A DNA stretch of 64,000 nucleotides from Clostridia bacterium (GTDB lineage Bacteria > Bacillota > Clostridia > RUG12999), in the NCBI GenBank assembly GCA_045534775.1, contig JAZSKI010000049.1:9254-73253 (forward strand), read 5' to 3'. The position numbers and the translations under genes are program-made. Positions within the stretch are counted from its first letter, which is position 1. Each line of letters begins with the position of its first letter. The notes below the pieces were generated by a model. The model was not told where the DNA came from and made no database searches. It was given only the letters and a program-made list of their open reading frames with translations. Shown here in pieces: positions 14,506-32,782 of the stretch.

Positions 14506-17382
14506 CTATTTTTTCAAAATAATTTTTACGGTTCCAGAGAGGAGGGCTAAAACCACCTTGTCATCTGCATTTATTTCCGAAATATCCGTCTTTTTCAGCC
14601 TGCCGTTTTCTATTTCATAAACCACCGCCGAGGTGGTTGAGAAGTTCCTTTCGCCACCGGTTGACTCCGCTATAATGCGACCGTCATATTTTTTCAGTAC
14701 CTTACCCAAAAATACTGCTGTTTCTCCGAAGAAGAAATCCGCCGTTACAGTACCCCATTCGCCCGTTACCCATTCATAGAAATCTGTAGTATCGGCTGAA
14801 TGTAAAAACCGCACTGCATTTATTTCTCCTTTTTCGTCCGTACCGTATTGCAGAATATCGCCGACCGCAAGTGGGGTCCCCCCATCGCCCGGGTGCAGGA
14901 TTTTGTTTTTACAGGAACCTATTGCCGTTATATCTTCAATATCCCTTGCGGAAATTTTAATATCCGTTCCATTACTGAAGGTAAGCATATAAACCTCGTT
15001 TCCCGTTTCATCGAGGGTCACTTCTATTTCCCGGATTATGACAATTTCATTATAATTGGTAATATTCAGCATCTGGCTGTCCTTTTCGTGGACTATGACC
15101 GCCTCAGGTACATATTGTTCGTCTGTGCCGTAGATTTCTATATTATATCTGTTTGTAGCTTTGAAAAAATCTTTTTTCCTTACAAAGTAGCCTTCCTCGT
15201 AGGTTTTATCTTCGGGAATTACTATAATCTTTGTTTCGTCCGACAGGAAATATCTTGCGGCAAAAAGACTGTTGTGATAGAGACTGATGCTCTTATAATC
15301 CGCATTTTCCACGCTGAGGCTGCTTATTTTTCCGTCTCTCGCCAGGCTGTATTTTACGGTTTTCCCTTCAGGCGGCAGGGCAACGCCCTGCTTTAAAGTA
15401 AATATTTCTATTTTACCGCCGCCCGTAAAGAGTTTTATTTCCATATCATCCGAAATATTACCCGAGCTTCCCGTTTTTATCACATAGCCATAGTTTTCAT
15501 AGGGCGAGCTTTTAATATCGGCATAGAGGATTTTCCCCTGTCTGTCAAAATAAAAATATCCCCATTCACCCACCTGCGGTTGCGGTGTGTTTCCGAAGGC
15601 GGCTGAAACCGCGTAGGGTTTCCCGTCAATAATTAACTCCCTTTCACTTAAAGAGTCTAAGGTCCCGATGACCGCTTCCGTTGAAATTATAATTTCTGTC
15701 GCCCTGCCGTTTATGCTTCTTGCAATTTGCAGTACCTCGTCGGCATTATAGCTCAAATCATCTGTTTTTTCGCCGTCACGGATTACGGTTACCTGCCTGC
15801 AATCGGGCAAATTAAGCATAAGCTTTCCGCTGAATCTGCCGTAAACTTCTTTTTCGAGGCTTCCTCCGCTTTGGGCAACTACCGCAGTATAGCTTTTGAT
15901 TTTAACCGTTTCTGCAGGTGAACCGATAATCTCAGCCTCCCCGTCAGCAGGGCAATAATCGGCTAAATTGCAATCCCCTGCCGAGGCTAAAAACTCGCCG
16001 TTATATATAATTCTGGTATTGGGTGTGATGCTGACCCTTACGCCGCCACCTGCGATTTCGCTGTTATTAAACTCTTCAATATCATCTGCCGAAATCACCT
16101 TTACATCCTCTGTTTTATCAGTAAAATGTATAACCTTCCCCTCGTCATCCGCATAAAGCTTCACCCTATGACCCAACAGCTTTTTAATTCCTTCATCCCC
16201 GCAGCTATAGGTTTCAAAACCCAGTCGAATCTGAGTTTTCCTCACCGAGCTGTCACCCGTCAGGGCGGTTGTGCCGTTATCCGTCAAGAGAGACGTTACC
16301 GTATTAATTTTATGATAATATTTAAGAGCATTTACAGTTTTATCGTATACGATATTCTCTCCGAAGGAGCTTTGCTCCATAACCCTCGTTTCAAAAGCGT
16401 TTGCTAGAAGATTTACCATATCTCCTCTCGTTATATCGCCGTCTTTGACATTTTTCCCCAGCTTCAGCTCCCCGGCAATGGACAAATATCCTACGGGATA
16501 GCCGCCCGTGGTCTCGGCATAGTTACCATAGCCCAGTGCCGTTACAAGTATTTTTACGGCTTCCTTATAGCTGACAATCCTGTCCGGATAGAAAAGCCCG
16601 TCTGACGCTCCGGTGACAAGTCCATTTTCCACCCCTGCGTTTACATAAGGCGTATACCACGCTTCCTTAGCCACATCCTCAAAATAGGTGTAGCCACCGC
16701 CGTTTTCCGCATTAATCAGCTTTGCAACCGCAGTAATGTAGCCGGCACGGGTAACAGTCTCTTCAGGTCTGTAGCTACCGTCATCATAGCCGTTTAAGAT
16801 ACCGAGACTGTTTAAAAGCTTTAAGCTATCCAGCATATTTTCATCTGTTACATCAGCAAATTTTTCACTACCGCCCTTTTCGCCTCTGATAAAGCGAATA
16901 GCAGGGTTCCAGGAGTTTCCGCCCAAATTCTGAAATTCTATTTTTATGAATTTATCTTCGGTGTTTTTTATTTTATAGTCTATTGTCAGCCATTTATTTT
17001 CTATCTTGGGATGGATTTTAATGGACGGTTTAATTTGTCTGAACTTCTCCCCGTCCTCCGACAAATAGAAATTAAAATGAGACATTCCGTCACCGTCCCA
17101 GAAATAGGTTGAAACGGTAAGGTCGCATTGAATCGGGATTTCATATACAAGCCACTGTGGTGAAAGCTCCGTTCGCTGAATAAAACTGAAATCATCGGTG
17201 AAGCTTACCTCCTCATCCGTATGAGGGGTTGCCGTAAGCTTTTCACTATGAAAAACCGCACCGTCAAGGCTTGCGCAATCCTCAAAAAAAGGCAACGATA
17301 CCTCTTCTGCCGATACAGCGATCGGCAGAAGAAGTACTGACAGAATTATTAAAATATGTTTTTTTATATTACACTTTAACAT
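14506..17382 (-). CDS. large secreted cell-surface protein with N-terminal SLH (S-layer homology) domains
   Basis: Signal peptide MLKCNIKKHILIILSVLLLPIAVSA. Several SLH repeats are present (FADV...LGIL.GY.DG.YRP...TRAE...). The start is placed at the second Met (17382), which has a GGAG RBS. The ORF track starts at 17397, which would overlap the ilvD relic. Confidence 0.75.
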   Translation of the reverse strand: MLKCNIKKHILIILSVLLLPIAVSAEEVSLPFFEDCASLDGAVFHSEKLTATPHTDEEVSFTDDFSFIQRTELSPQWLVYEIPIQCDLTVSTYFWDGDGMSHFNFYLSEDGEKFRQIKPSIKIHPKIENKWLTIDYKIKNTEDKFIKIEFQNLGGNSWNPAIRFIRGEKGGSEKFADVTDENMLDSLKLLNSLGILNGYDDGSYRPEETVTRAGYITAVAKLINAENGGGYTYFEDVAKEAWYTPYVNAGVENGLVTGASDGLFYPDRIVSYKEAVKILVTALGYGNYAETTGGYPVGYLSIAGELKLGKNVKDGDITRGDMVNLLANAFETRVMEQSSFGENIVYDKTVNALKYYHKINTVTSLLTDNGTTALTGDSSVRKTQIRLGFETYSCGDEGIKKLLGHRVKLYADDEGKVIHFTDKTEDVKVISADDIEEFNNSEIAGGGVRVSITPNTRIIYNGEFLASAGDCNLADYCPADGEAEIIGSPAETVKIKSYTAVVAQSGGSLEKEVYGRFSGKLMLNLPDCRQVTVIRDGEKTDDLSYNADEVLQIARSINGRATEIIISTEAVIGTLDSLSERELIIDGKPYAVSAAFGNTPQPQVGEWGYFYFDRQGKILYADIKSSPYENYGYVIKTGSSGNISDDMEIKLFTGGGKIEIFTLKQGVALPPEGKTVKYSLARDGKISSLSVENADYKSISLYHNSLFAARYFLSDETKIIVIPEDKTYEEGYFVRKKDFFKATNRYNIEIYGTDEQYVPEAVIVHEKDSQMLNITNYNEIVIIREIEVTLDETGNEVYMLTFSNGTDIKISARDIEDITAIGSCKNKILHPGDGGTPLAVGDILQYGTDEKGEINAVRFLHSADTTDFYEWVTGEWGTVTADFFFGETAVFLGKVLKKYDGRIIAESTGGERNFSTTSAVVYEIENGRLKKTDISEINADDKVVLALLSGTVKIILKK

Positions 17383-17835
17383 CAAGCACAGCTCCATTTA
17401 TAGCAGAAGATACAAGCATTGCATAGCGGCTGAGATACCCTTCTTTGATTTTCATTTCGGGACAGTTCCATTCTTTCATTCGACTTGCGGTTTCCTCGTA
17501 GCGAATTATCGCCACATCAGCTTTTTCGATTTTACCGTCCATAATAGCAGCTATTGCCTCGTCCTCGCTGCCAAAACCTTTGCCTCTTATTCGTGTACCG
17601 GCATTTCCTCAGCAACAGCGGCACGTTTTGCCACACAGCCGTCCTTTGCGGCACGGGGTATTTTATACGTACGGATATGCCCGGGGATAATCTCATTAAA
17701 GGTACTCGCAACACCTGTAACAGGTCTTTTTATCTGTTCGCCCGTATATCCCATAGCATTAAGAAGGCTACGGTGAGAAGCTTTTTTTAAGCCCGTACCT
17801 CTCTTAAAATCAAACCTTTCAAAAGTTATATAATT
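17369..17835 (-). pseudogene. ilvD: dihydroxy-acid dehydratase (ilvD) relic: N-terminal ~65 codons fused to two C-terminal pieces, no start codon, internal stop/frameshift
   Basis: Minus-strand translation gives ...LKKASHRSLLNAMGYTGEQIKRPVTGVASTFNEIIPGHIRT... (IlvD residues ~10-75), then a stop, then in another frame GKGFGSEDEAIAAIMDGKIEKADVAIIRYE|ETASRMKEWNCPEMKIKEGYLSRYAMLVSSAINGAVLDV (IlvD ~395-420 joined to ~515-558). About 1.2 kb of ilvD is missing. Confidence 0.6.
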
Positions 17836-17893: not shown

Positions 17894-18205
17894 TTAATTT
17901 CTTTCGTTACACACCTCTATGTAGAAGCTCACCGGTCTGAATCCGTCATTACAGGAAATCATAGCCGATTTTTCATTTTTCATCCAACCGTCGTAGAAGT
18001 TACCGCCGCCGGTTGCCAGCTCTTTTACAAAATATTCCATACTCTCCCAGGCAGAATCGCACATATTTTCAGGCTTTTCGCCGCGGACGGACATAAACTC
18101 CATACCGAGCCGCATTTCGCAGGCATGCTCGATTGGATTTTCATATTTTTCTATCAAATCCTCATACCGCATCATTTTCATAACGGTAATTTTTACGTCC
18201 TTCAT
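17894..18205 (-). CDS. hypothetical protein (103 aa, 4 Cys), last gene of PAS-Sir2-rhodanese operon
   Basis: 4-nt ATGA overlap with the upstream rhodanese gene. No family recognised. Confidence 0.5.
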   Translation of the reverse strand: MKDVKITVMKMMRYEDLIEKYENPIEHACEMRLGMEFMSVRGEKPENMCDSAWESMEYFVKELATGGGNFYDGWMKNEKSAMISCNDGFRPVSFYIEVCNERN

Positions 18206-18618
18206 TTCTCCACCTCATACTGCCAGTCAATGATACCGCCGAATTCTTTTACCTTGGTGTAGCCGAGCTTTACAAGGCTTTCCGATGCGATTTTACTTCT
18301 TCTGCCGCTACGGCAATATACAAGTATCTGCTTGTTTTTGTCCGAAATCACCCTTTCGGCTTCCGCCTCAATTTCGGTGTATGGAATTAAGATTGCTCCC
18401 GGAATATGTCCCTCGCAAAACTCGCTCTTTTCCCTTACATCAAGGATAATTATATCCTCGCCGCTATCCATTATCCTTTTTGCCTCTTCTGTTGAAATCT
18501 GTTCGTACATTACTATTCCTCCCTGCTTTGATACATTCTCACCGCCGTTATTATCCCCGCAAGCGGTGAGAAAAATACAAAACACAGCAGATATAATACA
18601 TAATATTTTCTTCATCAT
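18202..18618 (-). CDS. rhodanese-domain lipoprotein (sulfurtransferase-like)
   Basis: Signal peptide with lipobox LTAC. Single rhodanese domain with the active-site loop YCRSGRRS. Confidence 0.8.
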   Translation of the reverse strand: MMKKILCIISAVFCIFLTACGDNNGGENVSKQGGIVMYEQISTEEAKRIMDSGEDIIILDVREKSEFCEGHIPGAILIPYTEIEAEAERVISDKNKQILVYCRSGRRSKIASESLVKLGYTKVKEFGGIIDWQYEVEK

Positions 18619-19352
18619 AGTTTTTCCATCACCTTTTTGAATACCTCGCCGATATTTTCTCTTATTACCAAATCGGCGTGACCGTCGTATTCTGTTTCGG
18701 ATTTATTTATCATAACAATATATTTCCCTCTGAAATATCTTACAAAGGATGCGGCAGGGTACACCGCAAGGGATGTCCCTCCTACCACGAGCATATCCGC
18801 GTTTTCTATATGATACACCGCCGATTCCGCAATCCCCTCATAGAGTGCTTCGCCGTACAGTACAACCTGAGGCTTCATAATTCCGCCGCAGGAAACGCAT
18901 CTTGGTACATTTTTGTTTTTGATTTCCGACAAAAGCATATCTGTCGCTCCTTGTCTGCCGCAGGAAACGCAGGTAAATTTTTCTGCCGTTCCGTGAAGCT
19001 CAATTACATTTTTGCTACCCTCCCGTTGATGCAGTCCGTCTATGTTTTGGGTTATGACCGCCTTCAGCTTCCCCATTTTTTCAAGCTTTGCCAATGCTTT
19101 GTGGGCATCGTTGGGTTCTGCCTCGATTATAAAATATTTTCTGTAAAAATCATAAAAGGTTTCGGGATTTCGGAAAAAGAAATCGTGGCTTAAGATTTCT
19201 TCGGGTGGTATACCGTATTCTTTAACTGTATTATATAATCCGTCCCGACTCCTGTAATCCTTCACGCCGCTTTCGGTAGACACTCCCGCCCCTCCGAAGA
19301 AAGCTATTCTGTCACATTCTCTGACCATCTCTGTAAATTTTTCTATATTCAT
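18615..19352 (-). CDS. cobB: NAD-dependent protein deacylase, Sir2 family (CobB-like)
   Basis: 245 aa with GAGVSTESGVKDYRS, the Zn ribbon CVSCG...CVSCGG and a Rossmann fold. 4-nt overlap with the rhodanese gene. Confidence 0.85.
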   Translation of the reverse strand: MNIEKFTEMVRECDRIAFFGGAGVSTESGVKDYRSRDGLYNTVKEYGIPPEEILSHDFFFRNPETFYDFYRKYFIIEAEPNDAHKALAKLEKMGKLKAVITQNIDGLHQREGSKNVIELHGTAEKFTCVSCGRQGATDMLLSEIKNKNVPRCVSCGGIMKPQVVLYGEALYEGIAESAVYHIENADMLVVGGTSLAVYPAASFVRYFRGKYIVMINKSETEYDGHADLVIRENIGEVFKKVMEKL

Positions 19353-19365
19353 TTTACTTGCCTCG

Positions 19366-19731
19366 TCAAACCTTTTTAGGCTGATACAGCCCGACCGGCT
19401 CTCTGTTTCTGTACTCGTGTTTCTCGTAGTAGCCTATCAGAGTTCCGTCATCATCACGAAGTGCTACCATATAGACATCCTTGTTTTCTTCATCATTACG
19501 ATAGGTATAGATAATATTGTTACTCTTTCCTTCCTTAAACCACGCAAGGACCTTATCTATCATCTCGTTTGCCTTCTGCGTATGGCAGTCTCTTATGCTG
19601 CTGCCCGTCAAATTCTTGCGGTACCTCGCTATAGCCGACGGATTCATATATACAATTTTGTCATTCATATCGCAAATAACAACAGGTGCCGTATCCGCTT
19701 CAAGTACACTTTTTAATAATTTGTTTAACAT
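19366..19731 (-). CDS. small stand-alone PAS-domain protein
   Basis: PAS-fold pattern (VVICDMNDKIVYMNPSA...DGTLIGY). The start is placed at the second Met (19731), which has the RBS AGGAGGG 5 nt upstream. The track start is 19746. Confidence 0.55.
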   Translation of the reverse strand: MLNKLLKSVLEADTAPVVICDMNDKIVYMNPSAIARYRKNLTGSSIRDCHTQKANEMIDKVLAWFKEGKSNNIIYTYRNDEENKDVYMVALRDDDGTLIGYYEKHEYRNREPVGLYQPKKV

Positions 19732-19795
19732 CTTGTCCCTCCTCATTTTTTATTGTTTTGAATAAAAGCCTCTTGTTTAATTTTATCCGATGCTT

Positions 19796-20470
19796 TTATT
19801 TCAGACTTTTCAGATATTCCTTTTGCCTGTCCGTAATCCGATGGCTTTCCGCCGCCTTTTGGATTGTCTTGTTATGTACCCATTGGGGCAGGCTCTTGTT
19901 TTCTATATACCTAACAGCCGTATCATACTGTTTTACAAGTGCTGCCTGAAAATACCACGCCATCATCATATTGACATAGTATTCCTCCGACCTGATGTTT
20001 GCAACCATATCGGTGTATTCCTTCCTGAAGCTACAGTCCAGAAAATGCGTCATAAGCATACCTATTGCAAAACGTACTGTATACGGTTTATCCGATTTGA
20101 GCCATTCTTTAATTTTAATCAACAGCTGAGGCAGATTGTTCTTAAATGCCGCAGGTCTGAAACCGTCGCAGGTTGCCCAGTTATCTATCCACGGTAAAAA
20201 CCTTTCCGTCTCCGCCATACAGCTGTCATAATTCTTTATCTGCATTATCAAAAATGCGTGAAGGTTATTTTCTTCGTAGTATTTATGAGGCAGGCTGTCT
20301 AAAAATTCCCCGTATTCTTCCCTTTTAAAAAGCTCCTTAGCAAGTCGTTTAAGCTCAGGCACTCTCACTCCTATTACCCATTCTTTATCAACAGTCGGCA
20401 TAAGCCCGGAGTGAAAATCGCGGTATTTTAAGTCCTGCAAGCTAAATAATTCTTTTTGTATGCTTTTCAT
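19796..20470 (-). CDS. DNA alkylation repair enzyme (AlkD/AlkC HEAT-like repeat family)
   Basis: 224 aa. Family signature residues are present (WVIGVRVPELKRLAKEL...WATCD). Confidence 0.8.
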   Translation of the reverse strand: MKSIQKELFSLQDLKYRDFHSGLMPTVDKEWVIGVRVPELKRLAKELFKREEYGEFLDSLPHKYYEENNLHAFLIMQIKNYDSCMAETERFLPWIDNWATCDGFRPAAFKNNLPQLLIKIKEWLKSDKPYTVRFAIGMLMTHFLDCSFRKEYTDMVANIRSEEYYVNMMMAWYFQAALVKQYDTAVRYIENKSLPQWVHNKTIQKAAESHRITDRQKEYLKSLK

Positions 20471-20496
20471 TTTTACCTCAATGCTTTAAAATTTCT

Positions 20497-21239
20497 TTAA
20501 TTTTCAATCAAAAAGTCCGATTTTGCGGTTTGCCTGAATTTTATGGGCGATACGCCTTTTATTTTTTTGAAAATACGGCTGAAATAGGCAGCGGCAGAAT
20601 AACCCAGCATTTCCGAAATTTCTTCTATGCTGTAATCGGTGTTTGCCAGCAAATTTTCGGCTTTTTCTGTTTTTCTGAAATTTATATACTCACTGACTGT
20701 ACAGTGATAATAGCTGTGAAACAACCTGTACAGAGAGCTTTTTGAAATATATGTCGCTTGCGCAACCTTCGTTGCCGAAAGAGGTTTAAAAATATTTTCA
20801 TTTATATACATGGTTGCTTTTTCGATATTTTTATCCGACTTCGGTTTCATGATATTTTCAAGTAATATGTATTTTGCCAGCATAACGCCAACTGTGGTTA
20901 TACTTCGGATTTTCGCATCTTCAACCATCTCAAGGCTGTCATAGTATTCCTGTAGCTTCGGGTTTGTGCAAAAGCCTTTTCCAGTTTTTATCTGACCCAT
21001 AATAACATATCCTATAATTATGCCTTCATGGATGATTGGCACAGCAATGTCCGTAAGCCCTGCGTGGCAGATATGGCGTTCAGGCTTTTTGCTTTCCCCG
21101 CATCGCCGCAAAAGCTTTATATCAGAGCTACTGCAGGCACGCCTTCCCTCCGGCGTTTCCTGAATTTTTCTGCAATAGTCATTGGAAACGATGCTTTTTT
21201 TATATTTGAGTATATTAAATCATTATAATCAACTATCAT
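20497..21239 (-). CDS. AraC-family regulator with N-terminal PocR sensory domain; apparent -1 frameshift in a T7 run
   Basis: C-terminal AraC HTH. The PocR motifs DYCRKIQETPEGRRACSSSD and HICHAGL are present. The frame opens without an ATG. The true start MIVDYNDLIYSNIKK is at 21239 in another frame. The two frames join if the T7 run at 21195-21201 is T8. The gene lies 26 nt upstream of alkD. Confidence 0.6.
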
Positions 21240-21255
21240 TTTTATCACCCTTTAA

Positions 21256-21284
21256 ATTATACACCATTATATTATTTTTTGCAA
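21256..21284 (-). promoter_or_regulatory. sigma-A promoter TTGCAA-17-TATAAT (minus strand) for the PocR/AraC gene
   Basis: The reverse complement reads aaagctaTTGCAAaaaataatataatggtgTATAAT. It shares the 15-mer AAAGCTATTGCAAAA with the MATE promoter. Confidence 0.4.
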
Positions 21285-21362
21285 TAGCTTTTCCTCAAAA
21301 GTTTTCACAAAATTGGAATATAGTGCAAAAAAATAAAAATTTTTAATATTGTAGAATCTTTT

Positions 21363-22240
21363 TTGTTATGTTATACTTTAGGTAATACTGAAAAAAGATG
21401 TGTCTCTATGAATATATATAATGTAAATGAAACGTCATATCATACGGAAGATTATAAAATCAAAATCAACGGCATTGAGGTTACTCCCGATACGGCGAGG
21501 GTTTTTGCCGTTTTCTTCAACAGACGCCGGCCCGGTCATCAAAGACAAATTGAGCAGTCGGAGCTTGTAAATTTTGTTTCATTTTCCTGCTATGGTGAAG
21601 CTGTTATTGAAGTTACTCCTGCGGAAAACTTTGAAAGCTATGTTATAAGACCGAAATCTCTTGGTTTTAAGTCCCGCATTACCGAAAGCGGCAGTATTGA
21701 AATTATAATGACACGGCCTGCATATTTTACCGTTGAGCCTTTTGGAAGAAGAAATGCACTTCACGTATTTGCCGACCCCGAAAAAGCTTACGAAAAGGAT
21801 GAAAATACTATTAATTTCGGCAAAGGCGTTCATGATAAATATGGATTGCGCCGATGTCCATGATATAACCTATGAAAATATCAACGTGGAATTTGATGAG
21901 CTAATTCCTCAGCCTGTGCTTTAGCAGACCGATAGTGAGGTTTATAAAAACCCCAATCCTGACTATGCTCCTCCCCTTATTCCTTCGGAGGTTGTTTTCC
22001 ATTACGAATATTCGGCAGGCGGCAAAAGACGCGGCAAAAACAGAAGGCTTAAGCTTAAAAACATTCATCTTTTCGGCAGACAAAAGCCTATTATTCATTT
22101 TGAAGGCTACGACCATGAACACGGCTGTGATGATATTACTGTTTCAGGGTTGTTCCGGAATGAGAAAAAAATAACCGATTTAAACGAAACCGAAATGACC
22201 GCAAACGAATTTTGCAGAAATATTACGTTAAAATAACGTT
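21363..22240 (+). pseudogene. degraded glycoside-hydrolase-like gene (possibly right-handed beta-helix / GH28-like), pieces in three frames
   Basis: Recognisable fragments are NIYNVNETSYHTEDYKIKINGIEVTPDTARV..., then DCADVHDITYENINVEFDE in a second frame, then IHLFGRQKPIIHFEGYDHEHGCDDITVSGLFRNEK in a third frame. The total is far shorter than any intact family member. The family assignment is tentative. Confidence 0.35.
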
Positions 22241-22287
22241 GCTTTCTGCCTATAAAAATTTCATATTAAAATAGGAGGTAATTTAAA

Positions 22288-24187
22288 ATGAAAGAAATTA
22301 TTGTTCCGGTTGTATATAACACCGTCGACCGTTGCGGACGCAAGGAAATTACAGACGCTCTTAAGCAAGCGAATGTGTCCCGCGTTTTTATAGGGTTTGG
22401 TCAGTATTTTTACGATGAAAAAACGTCTGGAATCCTTTAAAATCCTTAAAGAAAGTATTGATTATTTTAAAAACCAAGGCTTTAAGGTCGGTGTGTGGCA
22501 TTGGTCCTTCTGGATAAAGGATTTTAGCCCTTTTACCATGATAACAGGTGCAGACGGCAAGGTATCCTCCGGCTTTACCTGTCCCTTTGATAATGATTTT
22601 ATAAAATTTGCCGGTGATTTTACTAAAGAGTTAGCCCATTTAGGTATTGACTCAATTCTCCTTGACGATGACTACCGTTTCGGTCATTTAGATGTTGCAA
22701 ACGGCTGTATGTGTGACAAGCATCTGACAAAAATCAGAGAAATTTCAGGTGAAGAAATAAGCCGTGAGGAGCTTAGTAAAAAAATTCTTGTAGGCGGTAA
22801 AAACAAGTGCCGCAGTGCATAGATGCAGGCAAACGACGAATCTTTGATTTCCTTCGCCAAGGAGCTGCGTAAAGCCTTAGATACAGTTGACAGCAGTATC
22901 AGAATGGGATATTGCAGTTGTATGACGAATTGGGATAACGATGGTACTGATCCTGTTTCCATTGCCAAAGCTCTTGCCGGCGATACAATCCCGTTTTTAA
23001 GACTTATCGGTGCTCCCTATTGGCATTATGACAGACTGTTCGATCAGGATTTGCAAGGTGTTATAGAGGTTGAACGATTAAAGCTGACCTGGGCAGGAAA
23101 TCAAGGTGTTGAAATAACCTGCGAGGGTGATGCTTATCCCCATATCAGCCATTATTGCAAGGTCAGCCATATGGAAGTCTTCCACACAGCAATGCTTGCA
23201 GACGGCAGAGCTGATGGTTATATAAAATATATGATAACCTATAACACCTCCCACAAAAGATATAATGAGAAAATAGCTTCTCATATCAGGAATATGCCTT
23301 TATATAAGGATGTTTCGAGAATTTTCGACAATAAGACTGCCGTAGGAGTACGGATTTTTGAGTTCCAGCACAAGCTTGAGAATATGGACTTGCCTGAGGA
23401 ATATTGCGGAAATGAAAAAATTGCTCATCTCGTATTCTCACAGGGAGCAAAAGCAATGGCGGCTCTCAGTATTCCTACAACCTATGATGAAACTGAATGT
23501 CCCGGTGTTATTTTTGGTGAAAATGCAAAATATGTAACAGAGGAAAATCTTAAATACGGTGCGATTTTAGACCTTGATGCCGCCAAAATTCTTGAAAAGC
23601 GCGGTATAGATACAGAGCTTGCAAAAATTGGAGAAAGCCTTAACGCCAACGGCGGCGGTGTCGATTCTGCAGAGGAATATTATGTGACTGAAGACGACTA
23701 TGCAAAGTGTTTCGGACGGTTTGATGCCTTTGCTACTGAGCTGAAGGAAGGGGCAACAGTAGAAAGCTATTATGTCATAGATGAGAAAAAGCTCCCTAAC
23801 GTATATACCTATGAAAACAAAGATGGACTGCGTTTTCTTGTGATAGCCGTTAAAATGTTTTCTTCCGATGACAGAGTATTCAAACATATTTTAAGACAGC
23901 TGCAATTTATCCGCTATATTGAGTGTATAAGCAGAAAGCCGTTGCCTGCTGTGTGCAGTGAGCATCCCGAGCTTTATATGATGGTGAAGCGAAATGGAAA
24001 AGAACCCGCAGTGGAGTTATGGAATTTGTCCGATGACGGTATTGAAAGCCCCATCATCATGGATAAAAATATAGAAAATGCAGAATTTATAAATTGCGCC
24101 GGTAGCTTCAAAGAAAATATCGTAAATATTTCTCCCTTGCAGCCGCACAGCTTTGCATTTTTTAATATTACGGAGGAATTAGTGTGA
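22288..24187 (+). pseudogene. hydrolase-like (TIM-barrel-like) gene interrupted by a homopolymer frameshift and an in-frame TAG
   Basis: ATG 22288 (RBS TAGGAGGT) opens a 50-codon frame ending at TAA 22438. A TTG at 22397 opens an overlapping frame that continues the protein if the A6 run at 22418-22423 is A5. That frame ends at TAG 22820-22822, immediately followed by in-frame ATG 22823 and a 454-aa ORF. Confidence 0.5.
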
Positions 24188-25035
24188 ATTTTTTAATACT
24201 TTCGGTTATAGTTTTAAGTGTTTCTTCCCGGAATATTTTCCGAAAAATATATTCTGACAAACGAGGAAAGGAAAATATTTACATATTTAATATGGTGGCG
24301 GCTATTACATCTATAATCTTTTTCCTTTTATGGTCAAGAGGAAATTTGAAATTTGATTTAACCACCACCTTATATGCTGTCGGCTTCGGTATTTGTTTTC
24401 TTACCTGTATGACAGGAATGGGCTTTGCCATCAAATACGGATCTTTGTCCCTTACTTCACTTGTGTTGTCTTATTCCCTGATAATACCGACTCTACACGG
24501 CATCATCTTTTTAAAAGAAGCTGTAAAGCCTGCTCTTATCATAGGTCTTTTACTACTTTTAGCTTCTTTATATTTAATAAACAAGAGCGATGAAAAGTCA
24601 AAAATCACTCTGAAATGGGGCGTATTTGCACTTTTGGCATTTTTAGGCAATGGTGGCTGTTCAACCGTTCAAAAAATGCAACAGGTTGCTTGCGGCGGTA
24701 ACTATAAAAATGAATTTATGATATTTGCCATGCTAGTGGTTGCTGTCGTTATGGCAGTAAAGGGACTCCTTATAGACCGCGATTTTGAACAGCTTTCTTT
24801 TAAAAACGGCGGCATTTGTGCCCCTGCTTACGGCTGTGCTAACGCCCTTGCCAACCTGCTTGTAATGGTTCTTTCAGGTTTAATGTCATCATCACTTATG
24901 TTCCCCACCATATCAGGCGGGGGTATAATCGTCACATGGATAGTTTCAAAATTTTTCTTTAAAGAAAAACTCACCACTATGCAAAACGCAGGAGTAATCC
25001 TCGGCATAGCGGCGGTAGTAATACTAAGCATATAA
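24184..25035 (+). CDS. DMT/EamA-like 10-TM transporter
   Basis: 283 aa, hydrophobic. The GTG start overlaps the upstream stop (GTGTGA), indicating coupling with the hydrolase-like gene. Confidence 0.65.
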   Translation: MNFLILSVIVLSVSSRNIFRKIYSDKRGKENIYIFNMVAAITSIIFFLLWSRGNLKFDLTTTLYAVGFGICFLTCMTGMGFAIKYGSLSLTSLVLSYSLIIPTLHGIIFLKEAVKPALIIGLLLLLASLYLINKSDEKSKITLKWGVFALLAFLGNGGCSTVQKMQQVACGGNYKNEFMIFAMLVVAVVMAVKGLLIDRDFEQLSFKNGGICAPAYGCANALANLLVMVLSGLMSSSLMFPTISGGGIIVTWIVSKFFFKEKLTTMQNAGVILGIAAVVILSI

Positions 25036-25057
25036 AGTTTTGATGTGATATAAGACA

Positions 25058-25096
25058 TTTGCAGGGGCGATTCGTGAATCGCCCCTGCAAAAATTT
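25058..25096. terminator. bidirectional rho-independent terminator between the convergent transporter gene and queA
   Basis: GCAGGGGCGattcgtgaatCGCCCCTGC at 25061-25088, with T-rich flanks. Confidence 0.65.
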
Positions 25097-25099
25097 CTT

Positions 25100-26125
25100 T
25101 TATATTATCAGCATCGCATCTCCGAAGCTGAAAAATCTGTATTTTTCTTCTACCGCTTGTTTATAGGCTTTCATAGTGGTTTCGTAGCCTGCAAAGGCGC
25201 TTACCAGCATTATAAGCGTAGATTTCGGCAGATGGAAATTTGTGATTATGGCATCGGGGATTTTGAATTCATAGCCGGGATAAATAAAAATATTTGTACT
25301 GCTGCTACCCGGTACTATATGTCCTTTCCTGTCCGCCGCCGATTCAAGACTGCGGCAGGAGGTTGTCCCTACGGCGATTACTCTTCCTCCCTGTGCTTTT
25401 GTTTTGTTTATCAGCTCCGCCGCTTCTTCCGATACGGTATAATATTCTCTGTGCATTTCGTGATCCTCTACGTTTTCCGTCTTGACGGGTCTGAATGTTC
25501 CGAGCCCCACGTGGAGGGTAAGATAAGCGATATTTACACCCATTTCTTTTATTTCCTCAAGGAGCTTATCCGTAAAATGCAGACCTGCCGTAGGAGCCGC
25601 TGCCGAGCCTTCATTTTTGGCATATACCGTCTGGTATCTTTCCTTATCTTCTAATTTTTCCGTTATATAATGCGGCAAGGGCATTTCGCCCAGCTCATCT
25701 AAAATTGTTTCAAATACACCATCATATTCAAAGGTTACTATTCTGTCGCCGTCATCCTTTACCTCGGCGATTTCCGCCTTAAGCCTGCCGTCGCCGAATA
25801 CTACGCGGTGACCCTCTTTCAGTCTTCTGCCGGGGCGCACTATAGACTCCCACTGTGTCTGCGAGAGGCGTTTTAATAATAAAAATTCCACCTCTGTACC
25901 GCTGTCCTCACGGCGACCATAAAGTCTTGCGGGAATAACTCTGGTATCATTTAAAACCAGACAATCGCCTTTTTTCAGCATTGACTTTATATCGGCAAAA
26001 TGCTTGTTTTCCACCTCGCCCGTAGTACGACTTACACACATAAGCCTCGAAGCATCACGCTGTTTAAGCGGTGTTTGTGCTATCAGCTCCTGAGGAAGCT
26101 CGTAATCAAAAATTTCTAATTTCAT
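25100..26125 (-). CDS. queA: S-adenosylmethionine:tRNA ribosyltransferase-isomerase
   Basis: 341 aa. N-terminus [20 protein letters not shown]. Confidence 0.9.
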
Positions 26126-28195: not shown

Positions 28196-28324
28196 TAAAG
28201 GCTTCCCCTCGAGGGGAAGCTGTCACGAAGTGACTGATGAGGTGTAGCTTGCAAGCAATAGTTGTTTCATTTTCACCTCATCCGAGTTGCTTCGCAACCC
28301 ACCTTCCCCTCAAGGGGAAGGCTT
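28196..28324. repeat. symmetric array of five inverted repeats (two near-identical 20-bp GC-rich palindromes flanking three nested hairpins)
   Basis: A=GCTTCCCCTCGAGGGGAAGC (28200-28219) and A'=CCTTCCCCTCAAGGGGAAGG (28301-28320). B=gtcacgaagtgac (28221-28233) and B'=gttgcttcgcaac (28285-28297). C=gatgaggtg (28235-28243) pairs with C'=cacctcatc (28273-28281) around a 29-nt centre. Confidence 0.5.
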
Positions 28325-28373
28325 TTATCCCTTACATATCAAAGTTTAGAATTCGCGAACGATTTAGATGCCG

Positions 28374-28814
28374 TCAAAAATGTGCCTCATAATAATAAAA
28401 GTTATCTCTGATTTTTTCTGTGTAATATCTGTTATACTGATAATCAGTTGAATATCCTTCCCCATCTTTTTTCAGTAAATCCGTATCACAATACATTGTT
28501 CCGCACCAAATTGCCTTTGGCAAATTGTCTTCCGTATAATAGAAACCATAATCATGTGATGATGGAGCAATACCAAAGCCTCCACAATAAAAATCAATTC
28601 CCTCTTCTGCAATGTCAACAGACTCAATTCTGCTTAAATTCAAAGAATCGGAGAAATCTTGTTCAACAACATCAGAAAGTAATAGTTCATAATTTTCATT
28701 CACAAGTATAAAAATTTCTTCTTTTGCATCTTTATCAAAAAAGACTTTTTTAAATAAGAATGTAATGACTATGACTAAAAGTATTGATAATATAATTTTA
28801 ATTGGTTTTTTCAT
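28374..28814 (-). CDS. hypothetical membrane-anchored (signal-anchor) protein with Tyr/Asn-rich C-terminus
   Basis: 146 aa. N-terminal TM MKKPIKIILSILLVIVITFLF. C-terminus ...YSTDYQYNRYYTEKIRDNFYYYEAHF. Its start abuts the stop of the upstream four-helix-bundle gene. Confidence 0.55.
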   Translation of the reverse strand: MKKPIKIILSILLVIVITFLFKKVFFDKDAKEEIFILVNENYELLLSDVVEQDFSDSLNLSRIESVDIAEEGIDFYCGGFGIAPSSHDYGFYYTEDNLPKAIWCGTMYCDTDLLKKDGEGYSTDYQYNRYYTEKIRDNFYYYEAHF

Positions 28815-29195
28815 TTAATCGCCTTTACTTTGGTTTTCCTTTGCAGTATTTACTGACTTAACAAGCATCCGCCTGATGATGCCACATTCATTCAATAGTT
28901 CCTTTGAAACCACTTCCGTTATGCAGTTTGAACCAACAAGCATTTCAATCCAATACTCAGTTTCTATACATTCTTTTGAGGCAATATGAAACTTGTTTAT
29001 AAAATCAGCTTTGCTTGCTGCACAATTTGCTTCGTGTATATTCGCTCCAATCGATGTTGAGCTACAAATGATTTGATTTATCAAAACACTTCTGCCTTTC
29101 TTCGAATCAATAGCATCGCAAACTGATATGATTTTAAGTGCAAGTTCTTTTGCTCTTTTGCGAAGTTCTGAGTCTTTCATAAATTTGTCCTTCAT
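28815..29195 (-). CDS. four-helix-bundle protein of the 23S rRNA intervening-sequence / Avd-like family (TIGR02436-like)
   Basis: 126 aa. Family signatures ...FINKFHIASKECIETEYWIEML... are present. Confidence 0.7.
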   Translation of the reverse strand: MKDKFMKDSELRKRAKELALKIISVCDAIDSKKGRSVLINQIICSSTSIGANIHEANCAASKADFINKFHIASKECIETEYWIEMLVGSNCITEVVSKELLNECGIIRRMLVKSVNTAKENQSKGD

Positions 29196-32493: not shown

Positions 32494-32602
32494 ATTTGTA
32501 TATTTACCTGAAATTATACATAATAAAACCCGCAATGCCGTAAAATGAGTTCACCAAAACCTGCCTCAGCAGGTGGGTATTTCCTGATTGCTTTATAAGT
32601 CC

Positions 32603-32632
32603 CCTGGCGTATCCGAAGATACGGGGGCATTT
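32603..32632 (-). other. stable stem-loop with UUCG tetraloop (minus-strand RNA) within a structured intergenic region
   Basis: Minus strand reads gCCCCCGUAUC-UUCG-GAUACGccaGGGG. A further hairpin CCUGC-ugag-GCAGG flanks it. Confidence 0.3.
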
Positions 32633-32782
32633 ACGCCACATTCAGAGAGCCAATTCCCTTATAAAAAATGTTGGTTTAGGTAATACTGTATTCACGAACA
32701 TTGCAGGCAATTTAAACTGCTCTATCAATACTTATTGTATCATATTCCGAAGAAAATATCAATAGTTTCGCAATAAAAATTT

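Follow-up and report, generated by a model that had tools for sequence, protein, structure and literature searches.

What has become of the carbohydrate-utilization genes at positions 20497 to 24187 of a 64,000-nucleotide (nt) stretch of DNA from a Clostridia bacterium (contig JAZSKI010000049.1; the whole stretch is hereafter called the window)? A regulator, a glycoside hydrolase gene and a hydrolase-like gene are all interrupted there, and the question is whether these genes have decayed, whether the breaks are errors in the assembly, or whether the cell bypasses or exploits them. A first reading of the sequence, here called the original prediction, had described a decaying carbohydrate-utilization module with a PocR-AraC regulator and four lesions, and had left phase-variable or erroneous homopolymers as the alternative. 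We re-read positions 20000-25500 and re-derived the codons from the sequence. With a probability of roughly 0.8, the locus represents genuine, ordinary pseudogenization of a carbohydrate-utilization module that many gut and rumen Clostridia carry in intact form. We count at least seven lesions. All four that had been predicted are present, but three had been missed: a deletion in the PocR domain of the regulator, a 226-codon deletion in a gene of glycoside hydrolase family GH28, and a TAG codon in the same gene at 21922-21924. The GH28 gene is the most degraded; the hydrolase-like gene, which we call GH42-like, is doubly disrupted; and the regulator is disrupted twice and otherwise conserved.

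The description of the locus as a decaying module of this type is supported by homology and by synteny. Related loci numbered 80, and 53 related loci had enough flanking DNA for gene order to be read. A divergent PocR-AraC gene lay upstream of the homolog of the GH42-like gene (the family gene) in 11 of these 53, with an EamA/DMT transporter gene adjacent in all 11. Pfam calls placed the same trio of regulator, family gene and DMT transporter on two further contigs, and the regulator of the window is syntenic with module regulators in 13 loci. The fixed regulator/transporter trio is found at roughly one family locus in five. At locus L047, from a metagenome-assembled genome (MAG) of an uncultured Ruminococcus, the order is regulator (minus strand), SGNH esterase, GH28, a 226-amino-acid (aa) protein of unknown function, family gene and DMT transporter; the window shares with it the order regulator (minus strand), GH28, family gene and DMT transporter. 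Judged from these gene orders and homologies, the recurrent module is a divergent PocR-AraC regulator, an optional GH28 enzyme, a predicted GH42-like protein of ~620 aa and an EamA/DMT transporter. The comparison with intact orthologous loci that had been proposed thus found the module intact in related genomes, but a close relative with an intact locus was not found when genome contigs were searched with peptide patterns derived from the window.

The GH28 gene, which looks like the oldest decay at the locus, survives as two fragments:

21405-21836, plus strand: GH28 relic, N-terminal part, 52% identical to residues 24-168 of the L047 open reading frame (ORF) (tblastn E=3e-45)
21837, plus strand: deletion junction of the relic, where 226 codons are missing and the frame changes (21836/21838)
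21838-22236, plus strand: GH28 relic, C-terminal part, 47% identical to residues 395-526 of the L047 ORF (E=2e-37)

The original prediction had recognized a glycoside hydrolase relic in fragments in three frames. The relic is real, extends over 21405-22236 and is identified by its homologs as GH28, but the homology occupies two frames, not three; an ORF in the third frame (21935-22174) was considered as part of the relic and rejected, having no homology to the GH28 homologs. The reference for these assignments is an intact 532-aa ORF at 2954-4552 of L047 (a protein of ~509 aa counted from Met-24) that occupies the position of the relic in the syntenic locus. This homolog and that of locus L053 match Pfam Glyco_hydro_28 (PF00295) and, below equivalog cut-offs, NCBIfam polygalacturonase/rhamnogalacturonidase models; database matches carry PF00295 and PF13229, and the relic fragments themselves had no Pfam match. 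Residues 169-394, which are missing (146-371 from Met-24), span the sole stretch that matches the GH28 hidden Markov model (HMM) (153-361 from Met-24), and the 226 deleted codons correspond to the whole catalytic beta-helix. The C-terminal part is interrupted by the in-frame TAG, which is aligned to Gln, and a motif conserved in both intact homologs (VSAVPFNRRWPGHQR in L047, VSAYPFNRRWPGHQR in L053) is altered to VFAVFFNRRRPGHQR. Compared with GH28 enzymes of the polygalacturonase/rhamnogalacturonidase type, the flanks of the relic are still 44-53% (N-terminal) and 28-47% (C-terminal) identical to intact proteins of ~505 aa, but the relic lacks the GH28-matching core, is shifted in frame at the junction and carries a stop codon in what remains.

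The GH42-like gene follows on the same strand:

22288-22422, plus strand: codons 1-45 of the GH42-like gene, still in the original frame (residues 1-45 of the homolog P0004, frame +1, E=2.6e-5)
22418-22423, plus strand: A6 frameshift site; A5 restores the frame
22424-24187, plus strand: remainder of the gene in the shifted frame, with TAG at 22820-22822 inside it and, as its 3' part, a 454-aa ORF (22823-24187)

That the 5' and 3' parts belong to one gene, and that A5 in place of A6 is needed to join them, was confirmed by the match to P0004, which splits at the A run: residues 45-621 match frame +2 at 22418-24169 (E=9e-151), straight across the TAG. The predicted change of frame was correct, and homology assigns 45 codons to the first frame. 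In the alignment, these 45 codons keep an invariant Pro7 and a conserved RVF motif. The intact homolog at L002 reads GAC GAA GAA AAA CGC at this site, an A5 run, which fits an A5-to-A6 insertion in the window. The TAG at 22820-22822, directly followed by ATG and the 454-aa ORF, was found as predicted. Its alignment column holds Trp in most homologs ("RSAWL") and otherwise Leu, Phe or Tyr, and a TGG-to-TAG transition would be the simplest origin of the amber codon.

With one A removed and the TAG read as a sense codon, 22288-24187 encodes a 632-aa product that aligns over 99% of its length to several hundred proteins of ~620 aa (35-42% identity, E down to 1e-155) from MAGs of Clostridia belonging to the Oscillospiraceae, Acutalibacteraceae, Christensenellaceae and Lachnospiraceae. 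Across 57 homologs, 137 residues were at least 90% conserved; the window copy has lost 27 of these near-invariant residues, including a change of YPRPR to YPHIS, and the homologs have lost 0 to 19 (median, 4). As an argument for decay, this loss is suggestive only. The 454-aa ORF is without the first ~178 residues of the protein, which hold barrel strands 1-4, an invariant DDD motif and a Cys/His cluster, and it therefore cannot form a TIM barrel or a functional enzyme.

The regulator lies on the opposite strand, across a divergent intergenic region:

20497-21248, minus strand: PocR-AraC regulator pseudogene, AraC helix-turn-helix (HTH) half intact, PocR sensor half damaged
21195-21201, minus strand: A7 frameshift site (T7 on the plus strand); A8 restores the frame
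21219-21224, minus strand: approximate junction, placed by homolog spacing, of an in-frame deletion of ~22 codons in PocR
21249-21404, between the genes: divergent intergenic region of the regulator and the GH28 relic, with a promoter-like site on the minus strand

Direct reading confirmed the T7 run and that T8 is needed for the regulator to read through; the plus-strand ORF that had been cited for the T count is at 21028-21228 and contains ...NDAFFIFEY.... On the minus strand the gene begins GTG ATA AAA ATG ATA GTT GAT TAT AAT ... AAT ATA AAA AAA GCA. It is not a single ORF, being split at the A7 run into ORFs of 43 and 204 aa. One extra A fuses an 18-codon N-terminal ORF (GTG 21248 / ATG 21239) with the frame of the 204-aa ORF at 20497-21111. 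Alignments to homologs cross the A7 site in the shifted frame only, and the MIVDYN N terminus matches those of homologs (e.g., MIVDYD in P0138). The gene call in the public record is the 167-aa ORF alone (P0124).

The 250-aa product, frame corrected by one extra A in the run, is 40-49% identical to 119 PocR-AraC homologs of 261-329 aa. Its C-terminal HTH_18 domain (PF12833) is matched over HMM positions 2-79 of 80 (E=8e-20, 71.3 bits). The PocR domain (PF10114) is incomplete, matching at HMM positions 39-138 of 162, where the syntenic L047 homolog matches 4-160, because the segment of ~22 codons is missing. Before the invariant Cys there are 25 residues in the window copy, or 22 counted from the Met of MIVDYN; the same interval is 43-47 residues in 101 of the 119 homologs, and none is as short as that of the window. 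The lost segment is the conserved "KLxxxLxDFYNATGIxIxLL", and a search for a hidden copy in all three frames at the locus found none. A T8 run alone would therefore not give a normal regulator. The window copy resembles PocR-AraC regulators (PF10114 plus PF12833; annotated in Clostridia MAGs as "PocR ligand-binding domain-containing protein") in its domain order, N terminus and divergent placement beside a hydrolase/DMT operon, and differs from them by the A7 frameshift and the ~22 missing sensor residues. In the intergenic region, a promoter-like site for the regulator (TTGCAA-17-TATAAT, 21284-21256, minus strand) belongs to a class of sites that overall were not above shuffled expectation.

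The last gene of the module and its boundary are as follows:

24184-25035, plus strand: EamA/DMT transporter, intact ORF of 283 aa
25058-25091, either strand: bidirectional terminator-like hairpin (15-bp stem with 8 GC pairs, T-runs on both strands) that the cassette shares with the convergent queA

The predicted GTGTGA coupling is present, the GTG start at 24184 overlapping the TGA stop at 24185-24187. The transporter aligned over residues 1-283, at 40-48% identity, to transporters adjoining the family gene in 20 loci, and it keeps 51 of 53 conserved residues, inside the range of intact homologs. Its Pfam EamA score is 27.4 bits (gathering cut-off, 28.2); the L047 ortholog, 44% identical, scores 46.2 bits over two repeats.

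These observations support a model in which an ancestral operon would have encoded an optional accessory enzyme (GH28), a putative GH42-like glycosidase and a sugar-type EamA/DMT transporter, with the regulator divergent from it. The regulator would have decayed by loss of 1 nt in its A run and by the deletion of ~22 codons in PocR. The GH28 gene would have lost its catalytic beta-helix in the out-of-frame 226-codon deletion and gained a nonsense TAG, and the GH42-like gene may have been inactivated by the A5-to-A6 gain and the TGG-to-TAG change, and it has lost near-invariant residues in excess. The good conservation of what remains of the regulator suggests that its frameshift is recent. We infer that the module is non-functional, though the transporter ORF is whole.

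The first alternative to be weighed is that one or both of the homopolymer frameshifts, T7 at 21195-21201 and A6 at 22418-22423, are sequencing or assembly errors, so that neither the regulator nor the 5' end of the hydrolase gene is really out of frame. Both changes fall in A/T runs, a single-base change restores each frame, and only 3 of 35 conserved residues are lost from what remains of the regulator (0-9 in homologs). We nevertheless consider such errors improbable. Coding homopolymers of at least 6 nt break the frame in 2 of 7 cases at the locus and in 0 of 113 within the intact ORFs (55.5 kb) of the rest of the window (Fisher p=0.0029), and random homopolymer error is therefore unlikely; other large ORFs of the window gave full-length Pfam matches (FolD, IleRS, QueA, Sir2 and others). 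At least five of the lesions are beyond homopolymer error, namely both deletions, both nonsense codons and the changes in conserved motifs, and the earlier argument that the amber codon and the GH relic are not homopolymer artifacts is supported. Both frameshifted genes also carry a lesion of another kind (the TAG in one, the 22-codon deletion in the other), and correcting both frameshifts as artifacts would still leave defects in the GH28 gene, the GH42-like gene and the PocR sensor. We infer that the lesions are biological and not assembly errors.

Several points weigh against pseudogenization of the whole module as just described. The two homopolymer frameshifts rest on one assembly of the species and are not directly verified, and the main uncertainty is that one of these two single-base changes is an assembly error. 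QueA, AlkD, the DMT transporter and the 454-aa ORF are each singletons at 90% identity among ~15 billion proteins and lie on one 99,234-bp NCBI contig only; contig records encoding the 454-aa ORF were not found, and metagenome contigs gave no exact match to the DNA spanning the TAG site. It appears that this organism was sampled a single time. The window copy of the GH42-like protein is also the most divergent member of its family (mean identity 38%, versus 41-54%), and part of its excess loss of conserved residues may reflect divergence of the lineage and not decay. Finally, conservation of the transporter, and of the regulator outside its two lesions, equals that of intact homologs; any decay of these two genes is therefore recent or incomplete.

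A second alternative accepts the breaks and holds that they are bypassed or regulatory, so that full-length proteins are made by -1 frameshifting or transcriptional slippage in the regulator, a +1 shift in the hydrolase, amber read-through or phase variation. Slippery sites follow the rule of an X_XXY_YYZ heptamer. The zero frame of the regulator, ATA AAA AAA, offers A_AAA_AAA, a site of this type, and a -1 slip there gives exactly the homologous frame. RNA structure downstream was no better than in shuffled sequence, however (z=-0.65 and -0.57), and the hydrolase requires a +1 shift, not -1; to our knowledge, A6 is not a recognized +1 frameshift signal. Against recoding, too, the homologs are all single uninterrupted ORFs, the length of the A run at the hydrolase site varies freely among them, TAG is a normal stop in the window, where it ends 7 of 55 ORFs, and the PocR and GH28 deletions mean that function is lost whether or not recoding occurs. 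For phase variation, runs of 6-7 nt would be short, and neither the run lengths in homologs nor the RNA folds gave positive evidence for the phase-variable homopolymers that had been suggested. We regard recoding or phase variation as the least probable of the explanations considered. Programmed frameshifting was rejected as unsupported, since a downstream structure is lacking and relatives do not conserve the split. Reassignment of TAG or its reading as pyrrolysine was also rejected, given the 7 ORFs that TAG ends and an aligned column of Trp or other hydrophobic residues.

Elsewhere in the window, a second in-frame stop at 28814/28815 had been a candidate for recoding and was rejected, the two genes there being unrelated and separated by TAA. 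The region (28374-29195, minus strand) holds two ORFs in one frame with only TAA-ATG between them, one encoding a 126-aa helical protein of four-helix-bundle type and the other a 146-aa protein with a signal-peptide-like N terminus; they look like two unrelated genes and not a split gene.

The remaining alternative is that the cell retains the truncated products in a new role, either as an HTH-only AraC fragment (167-204 aa) controlling the alkD-PAS-SIR2 gene string or the orphan DMT transporter, or as a 454-aa protein that is partly functional. The predicted spacing of 26 nt from the stop of the regulator at 20497 to the start of alkD at 20470 was confirmed, no terminator-like site lies between the two genes, and the AraC HTH half of the regulator, like the transporter, is intact and well conserved. 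Retention of this kind is nonetheless very improbable. In the HTH frame there is no canonical start codon before TTG 21111, none of the 80 related loci conserves the adjacency to alkD, and the 454-aa ORF is excluded from a TIM barrel fold by the N-terminal residues it lacks.

The proximity to alkD had also been read as an Ada-like arrangement, and this did not hold. An AraC-type HTH gene lying 26 nt upstream of an AlkD-family gene (PF08713) on the same strand is like the Ada regulon, but by Pfam the sensor in the window is PocR, with no Ada_Zn_binding domain. An AlkD homolog was sought in the 80 related loci and found in none; in 11 other genomes, the synteny of the regulator is with the hydrolase and DMT genes. 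Downstream of the regulator on the same strand (17894-21248, minus strand), the window encodes AlkD, a 126-aa PAS protein, Sir2, a rhodanese protein and a 103-aa ORF.

To return to the preferred reading of ordinary pseudogenization, its practical consequence is that pseudogene annotations of the three broken genes should replace the short "hypothetical" ORFs of 166, 167 and 454 aa, and that this sugar-utilization capacity should not be credited to the organism. The locus is a clear case of the piecemeal decay of an accessory catabolic cassette within an otherwise intact chromosomal region, with the transporter as its last intact ORF.

What enzyme, then, did the GH42-like gene encode? Assigning a hydrolase family by running HMMs on the frame-corrected translation, as had been proposed, did not succeed: Pfam and NCBIfam at E<=0.01 gave no family for the window protein, the L047 protein or P0004. 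An AlphaFold model of P0004 (57 sequences; predicted local distance difference test score, 93.8) comprises a TIM barrel, an alpha/beta domain and a beta-sandwich, and Foldseek aligned the model over its full length to a GH35 beta-1,2-glucosyltransferase, a GH164 beta-mannosidase and GH42 beta-galactosidases at E of ~1e-19. A family profile matches a GH42 LacZ chain weakly (E=0.0025), with the Cys cluster aligned. In this weak alignment an Arg stands opposite the GH42 acid/base Glu and strand 4 bears the invariant DDD in place of the N-E motif of GH42; the nucleophile Glu of GH42 is on strand 7, and an invariant Glu of the family (E279 in the window, E280 in P0004) falls on predicted strand 7. 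The predicted architecture is like that of the three-domain clan GH-A enzymes of GH42, GH164 and GH35, but the sequences do not place the family within GH42. The original label "hydrolase-like" is thus supported at the level of the predicted fold, and the protein is not a demonstrable GH42 member.

At least 538 family loci were confirmed among 599 listed pattern matches in GTDB species genomes, mostly of gut and rumen Clostridia. Intact examples include the following:

L047, 5326-7218: intact family gene
L081, 8001-9872: intact family gene
L083, 8001-9899: intact family gene

It is possible, although we hold this tentatively and at somewhat short of even odds, that these loci represent a widespread undescribed enzyme family with a non-canonical active-site motif (DDD plus a Cys3His cluster), of which the window copy would be a decayed member. 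If so, the family would be either new among the glycoside hydrolases or a relative without hydrolytic activity. The GH28 and esterase neighbors hint at pectin or plant-cell-wall oligosaccharides as substrates. A literature search turned up nothing relevant. The common, uncharacterized GH42-like family and its regulator/transporter module are the more useful by-product of this work, and the intact relatives are open to biochemistry.

Three features of the window lie apart from the module. A 6S RNA (Rfam RF00013) at 32523-32712 on the minus strand matched the full-length model at 94.5 bits and was the sole gathering-level Rfam match in the window. A 963-aa protein encoded at 14506-17397 on the minus strand carries S-layer homology (SLH) repeats, indicating an SLH-anchored cell-surface protein. 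At 28197-28325, in an intergenic gap of 491 nt, two copies of an 18-nt GC-rich palindrome, CTTCCCCTCGAGGGGAAG and CTTCCCCTCAAGGGGAAG, lie 101 nt apart and jointly form a 26-nt inverted repeat that is 88% complementary.

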